From Escherichia coli (GTDB lineage Bacteria > Pseudomonadota > Gammaproteobacteria > Enterobacterales > Enterobacteriaceae), in assembly GCF_013315695.1 (NCBI RefSeq), contig NZ_CP054353.1: a stretch of DNA of 64,000 nt; one strand, written 5' to 3'. The position numbers were made by a program, and so were the translations under genes. Below, piece after piece: positions 22,140-26,658 of the stretch. The notes below the pieces were generated by a model. It saw only the letters and a list, made by a program, of their open reading frames with translations. It did not search any database and was not told where the DNA came from. How positions within the stretch are numbered: the first letter of the stretch is position 1; each line of letters starts with the position of its first letter.

Positions 22140-23114
22140 ATGACAAAATTACAACTTAAGTACCGGGAGTTAAAAATTATCTCGGTAATCGCTGCCAGTG
22201 AAAATATCAGCCATGCCGCGACTGTACTTGGCATCGCACAGGCCAACGTCAGCAAATATCTTGCTGATTTTGAATCAAAAGTGGGTTTAAAAGTCTTTGA
22301 CCGAACCACCCGACAGCTGATGCTCACACCTTTTGGCACCGTGCTGTTACCGTACATCAACGACATGCTGGACAGAAACGAGCAGCTTAATAATTTTATT
22401 GCAGATTATAAGCATGAGAAACGTGGTCGGGTCACTATCTATGCACCAACCGGCATAATTACCTATTTATCCAAACATGTAATCGATAAAATTAAAGATA
22501 TCGGTGATATCACCTTATCGCTAAAAACCTGCAATCTTGAGCGTAATGCCTTTTATGAAGGCGTCGAATTTCCCGATGATTGTGATGTTTTAATCAGCTA
22601 CGCCCAACCAAAAGATGAATCGCTGGTTGCCAGTTTTATTACCCAATATGCCGTAACCGCTTATGCCAGCCAGCGCTATCTTGGGAAACATCCCATTAGC
22701 CGTCCTGACGAACTCGAACATCACTCCTGTATTTTGATCGACTCGATGATGATCGACGACGCGAATATCTGGCGCTTCAACGTCGCCGGGAGTAAAGAGG
22801 TGCGGGATTATCGCGTGAAGGGAAATTACGTTTGCGACAACACGCAATCTGCGCTGGAGCTGGCACGAAATCACCTGGGGATTGTGTTTGCGCCAGACAA
22901 AAGTGTGCAGAGCGACCTGCAAGACGGCACGCTGGTGCCCTGCTTTCAGCACCCGTATGAATGGTGGCTGGATCTGGTGGCTATCTTCCGTAAACGGGAA
23001 TACCAGCCCTGGCGGGTCCAGTATGTGCTGGATGAAATGCTGCGTGAAATTCGCCACCAGCTTGCTCAGTCGCAGCAACTGCGGCCTGAACAAGCGGCGG
23101 AAAGCGAAGATTAA
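22140..23114 (+). CDS. yiaU: LysR-family transcriptional regulator YiaU
   Basis: 324 aa; N-terminal HTH and LysR substrate-binding domain. Confidence 0.85.
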
Positions 23115-24247
23115 TGATCGAGATAAAGGTAATGCACCCAGCTGGTCATGCGTAACAGTACTTTGCGCATCACCGAGACATGGCTGAAATGATCAGAGTA
23201 GACCGCCACCTGGGCGTAAATACCGTCTGGTAATGCGCTCAAATCAGTATGCTCATCCAGTTCAATGGTCGCGATAACGCCATCTGAACCCGGCTCTGTG
23301 TTTAACGTCTGTAAGGTGCCGGTCGACTGATAAGCTCCGCCGGGAACGGCTGGACTAATGGCTGCCAGCTTACCGCTGAATACCTTACCTGGCAGAGCAT
23401 TAAACACCACTTCCGCATCGTCGCCAGGAGCCAGTCGCAGCAAGGAGTTCTGACGGAACTGCGCCACGATTTGTCGTTTCTGATCGGGTATAAACACCAT
23501 CACCGGACGTAGCGGCAGCGACGCGGCATAGGTACCCGGACGAATCAGTACCTGGGTCACATAACCATCGCTCGGCGCACGCACTATCGTCTGCTCAAGG
23601 TTATATTTTGCTTCCGCGAGCTGCGCTTTCAGGCTGGCGATTTGAGAATGTTCACCCAACACCAGGCTATCCAGCTGGCTCTGGATCTGTTTTTGTTCCG
23701 CCGCCGCTGATTTTACGGAGGCTTCCTGCGCCAGATAATTTTGCCGCGCCACATCGATATCGCGTTCTGAAAACGGGTTTACTTTCGCCTGACTGCCGCG
23801 TGCGTAACGCTGATACTCTTTAGCGAATTTATCCCGCGTGGCCTTTGCCTGCTGAGTATTCGCCGCCATCTCATCTAACTCTGCGCCCAACGCCCGCTGT
23901 TTATGTTCTGCGGTAACGATATCCGCCATCAGCCGATCCACCCGCGCCTGATAACGCGTCGGGTCCAGTCGAAATAGCACCTCACCTTTTTTAATCAGCG
24001 TATTTTTCTTGTCCGTCACTTCGATCACCACGCCTGTCACCTGTGGGACAACAGGAATAGAAATAACCGCTTTTTGCGCTTTAAAGGTATACGGATGGTT
24101 ATAGTTCATTAACAGAATTAAACCGCTGACAATAAATATGCCACCCAGGGCCGCGGTGGGAATGGTCCATTTATTTACAGGAATTTTGAAGATCTTAAAC
24201 ATTGCCCATGCGAAAGCCACATAGGTCAAAATAATCAGTAAATCCAT
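23111..24247 (-). CDS. yiaV: HlyD-family membrane fusion protein YiaV
   Basis: 378 aa; N-terminal TM helix, coiled coil and beta-barrel sandwich; paralogous to yibH in this window. Confidence 0.85.
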
Positions 24248-24252
24248 AAGTA

Positions 24253-24576
24253 TTACTCGGCAGAAGAGGATTTGATGTCGGCGAGCTGTTTCTCCAGCCC
24301 GGCAATACGCTGTTGTAGTTGCACAACGGAGGAGTCATGGTTTTGCATTCCCCATCCCCGCTCCGGGCGGTAAAGCGTGGCCCAAATCCACAAAAATGGC
24401 CAGATAACATGCAGCGTAAAAAGACTCACCCAACCAGCAACATGAATGGCGTCGGCATGAGGATGATTACGTTTTTTAGCAATCAGGTAGGGAATATCAT
24501 GTAAAATAATAATCCCATAGAAGATCACCAGAAATACAAAAATAAGCACTCCCAGTGCAAAATAATCCAGGAACAT
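24253..24576 (-). CDS. yiaW: DUF3302-family inner membrane protein YiaW
   Basis: 107 aa from [11 protein letters not shown]; about 90% identical to yibI in this window. Confidence 0.8.
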
Positions 24577-24994
24577 ATTTCCCTCAGAGAATATAAAAAA
24601 GAACAATTAACGCATATTATGAAATACCATAATGCGGTGCAATTTCCTTATTTATATAACGACATATGGTTTTTTATATACTTTCTGAAGTGTGTGCCTG
24701 GCTTTTCAACAGGTCGAAGCTTATCATATTGAAATAATGTAACTATTGACCAAATTTATGAATAAAAACCGTAAAACATCCACAATGCAGATTAAGCGTA
24801 TTAAACCTTCAATTATCTACCGTTTATTGCTGATTGGCCTCGGAACGCCAATGGTGATTTATGGCCTGGTTCGCCCGCTCACCATCGAAACGCGAGATTA
24901 AACTCCTGGCAAAACACGCCCCAGAAACGCACTTCTGTTGGCGTAGTCTGGGTTATTGCGCACGTAGATTTAAAACGTAAATTGTAACAACGTG

Positions 24995-25095
24995 CGCTTT
25001 GTTTATGCCGGATGCGGCGTGTACGCCTTATCCGGCCTACGGTCAGGTCCCCGTAGGCATGATAAGACACGTAAGCGTCGCATCAGGCAATGAAT
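24995..25095. repeat. REP/BIME palindromic units downstream of aldB
   Basis: Canonical REP strings gccggatgcggcgtgtacgccttatccggcctacgg and gcgtcgcatcaggc. Confidence 0.55.
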
Positions 25096-25119
25096 ACCCA
25101 ATGCGACCAGCTTCTTATA

Positions 25120-26658
25120 TCAGAACAGCCCCAACGGTTTATCCGAGTAGCTCACCAGCAGGCACTTGGTTTGCTGGTAATGCTCAAGCATCATCTTATG
25201 GGTTTCGCGTCCGATGCCCGACTGTTTGTAGCCGCCAAACGCCGCATGTGCCGGGTAAGCGTGATAACAGTTGGTCCACACGCGCCCGGCCTGAATGCCG
25301 CGCCCCATCTTATAGGCCAGATTACCGTTGCGGCTCCAGACACCCGCGCCCAGGCCATATTGCGTGTCGTTCGCCAGCTCCAGCGCCTCGTCCATCGTTT
25401 TGAAGGTGGTTACCGCTAGCACCGGGCCAAAAATCTCCTCCTGGAACACGCGCATATTATTCTGACCAAACAGAATCGTCGGTTCGAGGTAGTAGCCGTC
25501 TTTCAGTTCGCCTTCCAGCAGCTTGCGCCGCCCGCCGGTGAGCACGTCTGCGCCCTCTTTTTTACCAATATCAATGTAGTTGAGGATGGTTTCCAGTTGC
25601 CCGTGAGAAACCTGCGCCCCCATTTGCGTCACGCTGTCGAGCGGGTTACCGCTACGAATGCTTTCGACACGGCGGATGGCGCGTTCCATAAAGCGTTCGT
25701 AGATAGACTCCTGCACTAAAGCACGGCTTGGACAGGTGCAAACTTCGCCCTGGTTAAAGGCAAACAGTGCAAAGCCTTCCAGCGCTTTATCGAAAAAGGC
25801 ATCTTCTTCATCCATCACATCAGCAAAGAAGATATTTGGCGACTTGCCGCCCAGTTCCAGGGTTACCGGAATAATATTTTGCGTGGCGTACTGCATAATT
25901 TGTTGGCCCACTTCCGTTGATCCGGTAAACGCCACTTTGGCGATGCGTTTCGAGGTCGCCAGATATTCGCCAATTTCCCCACCAGCGCCGTTAACCACGT
26001 TCACCACGCCCGGCGGCAGTAAATCACCGACGATTTCCATTAGCAGCAGTACAGAAAGCGGGGTAAGACGTGCGGGTTTCAGCACCACACAGTTGCCCGC
26101 CGCCAGCGCGGGAGCCATTTTCCAGCTCGCCATCAGCAGCGGGAAGTTCCACGGAATAATCTGCCCCACCACGCCTAACGGTTCGTGGAAGTGATAAGCC
26201 ACAGTTTCGCTATCCACTTCACTAATACCGCCTTCCTGCGCCCGAATACACGAGGCAAAATAGCGAAAATGGTCAATCGCCAGCGGCACATCAGCAGCAC
26301 TGGTTTCGCGAATGGGTTTGCCGTTATCCCAGGTTTCAGCGGTCGCTAACAGTTCGAGGTTCTGCTCCATCCGATCGGCAATCTTAAACAGAATCGCCGC
26401 GCGATCCTGCACCGAAGTATGCGCCCATTTATCTTTCACTTTGTGCGCAGCATCCAGCGCCAGATCGATGTCTCGTTTGCCCGAAGACGCCACTTCGCAC
26501 AGCAGCTGTCCGGTCACCGGCGTCAGGTTCTGGTAATACTCGCCGTCGGCAGGGGCTACCCATTCGCCGCCAATAAAGTTGTCGTAGCGGGCTTTTAACT
26601 TGAGGGGGAAACCATACTCGCCGGGCTTAATCTGTGCTGAAGGGGGATTATTGGTCAT
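25120..26658 (-). CDS. aldB: aldehyde dehydrogenase B
   Basis: 512 aa starting [15 protein letters not shown]; aldehyde dehydrogenase catalytic Cys/Glu motifs; the six-frame ORF is 30 codons longer upstream. Confidence 0.9.

Follow-up and report, generated by a model that had tools for sequence, protein, structure and literature searches.

The window, by which the whole stretch of 64,000 nucleotides of Escherichia coli DNA analyzed here is meant, carries a short open reading frame (ORF) with a hydrophobic product in the spacer between yiaW and aldB. The genes and features of this locus are as follows.

22140-23114, plus strand: yiaU
23111-24247, minus strand: yiaV
24253-24576, minus strand: yiaW
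24638-24680, no strand assigned: conserved stretch of the spacer (blastn against loci, and a diversity scan)
About 24673-24701, minus strand: probable yiaWV promoter (hexamers of PMC3946193 located by reading the sequence)
24740-24742, plus strand: in-frame TAA, allele-specific, GAA in other strains
24758-24901, plus strand: 47-codon ORF, MNKNRKTSTMQIKRIKPSIIYRLLLIGLGTPMVIYGLVRPLTIETRD (ORF list, PGAP annotation of an identical genome, and alignment to full-length genes)
24785-24901, plus strand: 38-codon ORF, the 3' part of the 47-codon ORF, whose codon 10 is ATG 24785
24860-24874, plus strand: deletion junction TAT GGC CTG GTT CGC, codons 35-39 (DNA alignment)
24898-24966, minus strand: hicB 3' remnant, YVRNNPDYANRSAFL..GRVLPGV* (translations and alignment)
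25120-26658, minus strand: aldB

The ATG at 24785, the stop codon at 24899-24901, and the translation of the 38-codon ORF are exactly as the first-pass annotation gave them. The frame is already open from TTG 24746, which makes 51 codons, and ATG 24758 inside it gives the 47-codon form, located at 3754611-3754754 in the K-12 record NC_000913.3. The 571 bases around the ORF are 100% identical to E. coli MS 21-1 and 94% identical to K-12. The hydrophobic stretch behind the proposed transmembrane helix is real (Kyte-Doolittle 19-residue maximum of 1.71, over IIYRLLLIGLGTPMVIYGL) and corresponds to helix 1 of a genuine membrane protein. The spacer has a GC content of 41% versus 52% for the window and is H-NS bound (PMC3946193), and when its 543 nt were shuffled, an ATG-initiated ORF of at least 38 codons appeared in 67% of the shuffles and one of at least 47 codons in 43%, so the length of the ORF by itself is within chance. 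These properties would suit a chance reading frame, without coding history, in an AT-rich yiaW promoter region, but the homology of the ORF to a real gene is beyond chance, as it runs codon for codon through both ends of a conserved 104-amino-acid gene under purifying selection, and the hexamers of the yiaWV promoter lie upstream of the ORF, not inside it. The alignment to full-length genes refutes the chance origin, which is left with practically no probability.

The ORF had been described as unannotated, which holds for the curated K-12 record NC_000913.3 and for some other genomes such as those of O157:H7, but not for most RefSeq E. coli genomes, in which PGAP labels the 47- to 51-codon form as a hypothetical protein, as in the genome identical to the window (WP_001039208.1) and in a K-12 assembly (WP_001066080.1). 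The yiaW-aldB interval of NC_000913.3 holds no feature, not even a pseudogene entry, and in the O157:H7 genomes the frame is open between yiaW and aldB, yet no feature is annotated. In none of the papers found by a literature search was yiaW linked to a small protein. As well, the peptide is absent from the accessible part of the Enterobacteriaceae microproteome supplement, and the accessible part of the supplement of Stringer et al. has no entry for the ORF.

Protein searches with the 47-amino-acid sequence returned E. coli matches only. The yiaW neighbourhoods were taken from species-representative genomes and searched (tblastn, blastn, and ORF lists), and E. whittamii (L007) and Escherichia sp. 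E1V33 (L006) were found to match residues 1-38 of the ORF and then to diverge; the match ends there because the same frame is 104 codons long in these two genomes, running from MNNTSNTSTVQLKRIKPSIIYRLLLIGLGTPLVIYGLV through 56 residues to RPLTIETRD. The 104-amino-acid gene is also present, with identical flanks, in genomes labelled as E. coli (L086-L089 and L108); EC42405 (NZ_CP043414.1, 230505-230819) is one strain in which it persists. In its intact form the locus reads yiaW, the 104-amino-acid gene, hicB, hicA, and aldB, where the 104-amino-acid gene is convergent with hicB-hicA and aldB and its stop overlaps the hicB stop. Of 5,426 complete E. coli genomes, the full gene is found in 28 and the deleted form in about 3,780, and about 1,600 have neither. 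In E. coli KK19-02 (L085), genes for an MFS transporter and a GH127 glycosidase replace yiaU-yiaV-yiaW upstream of hicB-hicA-aldB, which marks this side of aldB as variable within the E. coli species. A second DUF3302 gene, about 75% identical to YiaW, was observed elsewhere in Escherichia genomes (L061, L063, L043, L057, L062, and L067), and the E. coli species-representative genome matched only the DUF3302 paralogue of YiaW.

According to the DNA alignment, the common E. coli form is without exactly 168 nt, which are codons 39-94 of the full gene; codons 1-38 of the 47-codon ORF correspond to the N-terminal tail and helix 1 of that gene, whose last 9 codons are matched by codons 39-47. The junction fuses two imperfect direct repeats, TAC GGY CTG GTT TGC and TAC AGC CTG GTY CGC, which lie 168 nt apart in the intact gene and both of which share GCCTGGTT exactly in E. 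whittamii, and we infer that replication slippage or recombination between these repeats produced the deletion. When the codons of 24860-24874 were compared between the window and genomes L003, L090, L092, L093, and L097, two junction types were found in E. coli, GGC CTG GTT CGC (Arg39; the window and K-12) and GGT CTG GTT TGC (Cys39; O157, CE10, and F6326-C1), each corresponding to a different crossover point in the direct repeat. Moreover, the N-terminal variants KNRK and NSSK each occur with both junction types, and the junctions and variants together point to independent deletions, recombination between alleles, or recurrent mutation. At codons 3-5 (24764-24772), four base changes fall within nine bases, so that the window reads AAAAACCGT and encodes KNR where other strains have AACCCCAGT or AACTCCAGT and encode NPS or NSS; this clustered change, which L090 and L093 share, suggests a single multi-base event and not independent point mutations.

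The intact gene belongs to a family of small proteins. An exhaustive HMMER search yielded 169 cluster representatives at E ≤ 1e-3, with clusters defined at 50% identity, and most of them are about 100 amino acids long and aligned end to end; members include WP_001064341.1 of Escherichia, WP_349951231.1 and WP_024553640.1 of Franconibacter, and WP_075181565.1 of Pantoea. In an alignment of 30 members, G27, G59, G88, and L89 are invariant and G46, N53, W90, and S93 nearly so, and the conserved motifs are FG..V.WN and GLW.YS..RPL. The Franconibacter orthologues are convergent with aldB like the Escherichia gene, which makes the 104-amino-acid gene a long-standing neighbour of aldB in Enterobacteriaceae. 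In the AlphaFold model of the full-length protein, which is confident (mean pLDDT 83), residues 17-44 form a helix, residues 51-56 a short hairpin, and residues 59-95 a long helical segment. The product is a small membrane protein of about three helices. The codons lost from the common E. coli form hold helices 2-3 and the short hairpin, and with them seven of the eight invariant or nearly invariant residues are lost (G46, N53, G59, G88, L89, W90, and S93), while G27 is kept. Only RPL is left of the C-terminal GLW.YS..RPL motif, and the core motifs FG..V.WN and GLW.YS are absent from the window's product. The end-to-end alignment of about 90-100 residues that characterizes the family is thus not found for this product, which aligns over residues 1-38 and the last 9 only.

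Several identities were considered for the parent protein and for the short peptide. Searches of Pfam, NCBIfam, and PADLOC with the 47-amino-acid peptide gave no match, and those with the full-length protein and 29 relatives gave no counterpart, only scattered sub-threshold matches to unrelated membrane families. A profile search of PDB sequences with the family found no match, and a Foldseek comparison of the AlphaFold model with the PDB found nothing below E = 5. One UniRef entry labels a member as DUF3566 domain-containing, but of 30 members only 1 matched DUF3566 even weakly (E = 0.33). A role as a third component of a yiaV-yiaW system was discarded, as no trace of the gene was found in Citrobacter yiaW loci, and membership of the hicAB module likewise, as the Franconibacter and Pantoea homologues have no hicAB neighbour. 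Across Pantoea, Franconibacter, and metagenomes, the neighbourhoods of distant family members have no conserved partner in common that would point to a function. A type I toxin was also rejected for the short ORF, since an Rfam search over 24000-25600 gave no match over it on either strand at E ≤ 1 and Pfam and NCBIfam gave none; the hydrophobic helix is explained by the derivation of the ORF from a larger membrane-protein gene.

Selection on the two forms of the gene differs markedly. Across Escherichia lineages, the full-length gene has a dN/dS of 0.09-0.13, with a ratio of nonsynonymous to synonymous variable sites of 7:21, similar to the dN/dS of yiaW in the same genomes (0.07-0.12). The short form, sampled in 11 E. 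coli genomes with 6 distinct alleles, has a dN/dS of 1.03 (mean dN 0.060, mean dS 0.058; sites 14:4), or 1.10 on the 6 unique alleles, and in short-form strains yiaW has a dN/dS of 0.06 (3:14) and the 3' 720 nt of aldB one of 0.005 (1:49). By Fisher's test, the short form differs from the full-length gene (p = 7e-4), from full-length genes over the codons that the short form retains (5:13; p = 0.007), from yiaW (p = 6e-4), and from aldB (p = 3e-10), and selection on it is relaxed relative to the intact gene. Nucleotide diversity is 0.056 in the ORF and 0.060 in the adjacent non-coding spacer, compared with 0.020 in yiaW and 0.026 in aldB. The first-pass annotation had suggested an overlooked small membrane protein and had named substitutions inconsistent with coding constraint as one outcome that would refute it, and this outcome was observed; the purifying selection expected of a functional small protein gene was not found in the short form, whose dN/dS is about 1.0 and whose diversity equals that of its non-coding neighbour. 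Since the short form drifts like non-coding DNA, it is to be read as an ordinary decaying gene and not as an overlooked small protein.

Further lesions have accumulated around this form. Other E. coli variants include a frameshift (P0033), a stop-loss (P0005), and replaced N-termini (P0030 and P0022), and Escherichia sp. MOD1-EC7003 has a separate deletion of the 5' part, corresponding to window positions 24682-24863, and keeps yiaW. An ORF of the same extent is not conserved beyond the species, as sister Escherichia have either the 104-amino-acid form or a different deletion.

It might still be argued that the truncated product is a functional single-pass small membrane protein with a new role, for example in modulating a larger membrane protein, as many proteins of 50 amino acids or fewer do. 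The ancestral ATG and stop are retained, the frame is open in all 11 sampled short-form genomes, PGAP calls the ORF, and the hydrophobic segment is long enough to span a membrane; the open frame is weak evidence, because only 4% of possible substitutions create a stop. When the short form is divided, dN/dS is 3.3 in the N-terminal tail and 0.60 in codons 13-47 (6 nonsynonymous and 4 synonymous sites), versus 0.14 and 0.04 for the same parts of the full-length genes. The value of 0.60 leaves room for weak constraint, and over codons 13-47 the window allele encodes the same amino acids as the full-length form of E. coli, but a ratio drawn from only ten sites is indistinguishable from 1. The neutral overall ratio and the diversity given above speak against such a function, as do the variation of helix residues among short forms (G27V, T30S/I/A, I26M, and V38I), the existence of frameshift and stop-loss alleles, the missing entry in the curated K-12 annotation, and the complete lack of the locus in about 1,600 E. 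coli genomes. A functional small protein is therefore considered unlikely, although it is the least improbable of the alternatives.

The expression signals were also examined. ATG 24758 lines up with the start codon of homologues from Franconibacter and metagenomes (MNKE... and MNNA...) and is conserved in all 11 sampled short-form genomes. ATG 24785, which had been taken as the start, is not conserved, as this codon is GTA (Val), not a start codon, in K-12 and most E. coli. The in-frame TAA at 24740-24742 closes an upstream extension (MELLAKL...) with which some gene callers begin the ORF in K-12 and O157. No Shine-Dalgarno pairing was found before 24785, 24758, or 24746, and the doubt about translation that had been raised on this ground was justified; the absence of such pairing nevertheless says little, because the intact, functional full-length orthologues of Escherichia and Franconibacter are weak in this respect too. 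A promoter scan found no promoter-like site on the plus strand and one site on the minus strand, at 24752-24723, and the missing plus-strand promoter and, weakly, the missing Shine-Dalgarno sequence speak against a functional small protein as well.

Shimada et al. (2014) reported that the yiaW-aldB spacer is bound by H-NS and that the yiaWV promoter has the hexamers CAGACA-17-TATAAA (PMC3946193). In the window, the reverse complement of 24673-24678 is the -10 hexamer TATAAA and that of 24696-24701 is the -35 hexamer CAGGCA (CAGACA in K-12). The yiaWV promoter probably lies between yiaW and the ORF, at about 24673-24701, a position that we infer since the hexamers were located by reading the sequence. 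The ORF, which had been placed in a region resembling the yiaW promoter, would thus lie beyond the promoter and not in it. Within the spacer, the stretch 24638-24680 alone is conserved as far as Citrobacter and Pseudocitrobacter, at 80-91% identity over about 33-72 nt; its diversity within E. coli is low (pi 0.016), and it presumably serves yiaW as an operator, a regulatory sequence, or a 5' UTR element. A 37-codon ORF on the plus strand, 24619-24732, overlaps this stretch and is open in E. whittamii also.

With the promoter so close, the DNA of the ORF might be kept for a non-coding role, as a divergent promoter or upstream activating region for yiaWV to which YiaU or H-NS binds, or as an RNA. 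A location no more than 200 bp from the yiaWV promoter, in a spacer bound by H-NS (PMC3946193), would fit, and neutral evolution at the protein level is compatible with it. However, the ORF varies as much as the most diverse stretch of the spacer, in which only 24638-24680 is conserved, the Rfam matches are confined to sub-threshold ones in the downstream REP region, and MOD1-EC7003, which is without 24682-24863, still keeps yiaW. A non-coding role of this kind is thus very unlikely.

On the other side of the ORF lies the 69-nt hicB remnant, which encodes the last ~23 HicB residues and has itself lost 12 nt internally; the remainder of hicB and the whole of hicA are missing from the window. 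The stop of this remnant overlaps the stop of the ORF, the same as in genomes with intact hicB-hicA (L086-88 and L108), and 28 complete E. coli genomes, as well as cryptic Escherichia lineages, have intact hicB-hicA at this site. Therefore, with the relic ORF and the hicB tail, the spacer contains two adjacent gene remnants. In genomes without the short form, such as KK19-02, hicB-hicA was observed to adjoin aldB. Compared with a HicAB type II toxin-antitoxin module, the window retains the hicB tail on the opposite strand with overlapping stops as in intact loci, but hicA and most of hicB are gone, and the membrane-protein gene is no part of the module. Between the hicB remnant and the aldB stop, 24957-25130 consists of REP elements, over which three overlapping sub-threshold matches to naRNA4 (CssrE) were seen on alternating strands (29.7-37.8 bits; gathering score 59.5), and this sequence has matches at several other sites in each genome.

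Taken together, the ORF is very probably an internally deleted relic of the 104-codon membrane-protein gene, without protein function in E. coli. An Escherichia ancestor carried the 104-codon gene in the yiaW-aldB interval, where it was convergent with hicB-hicA and aldB, and on the line of descent of most E. coli 168 bases were lost between the imperfect direct repeats. As 168 is divisible by three, the original frame and stop survived, and what is left is an ORF of 47 codons that joins the N-terminal tail and helix 1 to the last nine residues. On these codons, selection relaxed roughly ten-fold, to about neutral, and a separate deletion removed hicB-hicA except for a 69-nt hicB tail. Any transcription or translation of the relic might be residual expression from old signals in an H-NS-bound, AT-rich spacer.

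This relic can be set beside known systems. With the family of about 100 amino acids it shares the correspondence of codons 1-38 and 39-47 to residues 1-38 and 96-104 of the Escherichia members, as well as the position convergent with aldB, the start, and the stop, but it is without residues 39-94. Like the intergenic pseudogenes of E. coli, it is a fragment of a gene intact in relatives, with neutral drift and lineage-specific lesions, and the features of a pseudogene are found in the intact longer homologue at the same locus, the loss of conserved residues, the relaxed selection, and the independent further lesions. It differs from them in that the lesion is in frame, so that the relic looks like a complete ORF; since the original start and stop are kept, gene callers and the first-pass annotation picked it up. 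AcrZ, MgtS, and YohP are validated E. coli small membrane proteins of 50 amino acids or fewer, supported by cross-genus conservation, translation signals, and tag detection. The window ORF resembles them in length, in its one hydrophobic helix, and in the basic residues ahead of the helix, whereas the short form occurs in E. coli only, evolves neutrally, and lacks a ribosome-binding site.

There is a slim chance that the in-frame deletion is recurrent and that the one-helix peptide has been maintained, whether as a small membrane protein with a function or as a dominant-negative piece of the parent family; if so, it would be a natural example of a small protein born by truncating a larger one. 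Under the preferred reading as a relic, the hypothetical protein annotated in thousands of RefSeq E. coli genomes would be better called a remnant of the WP_001064341.1 gene, and the curated K-12 record could carry the ORF as a pseudogene, together with the hicB remnant. In addition, the locus calls for caution in small-protein discovery, as an in-frame deletion can leave a clean start, a clean stop, and a convincing transmembrane helix in a sequence that is nevertheless revealed as drifting when sister lineages are compared. The parent family itself is widespread, adjoins aldB in Enterobacteriaceae, and has no Pfam or NCBIfam model.
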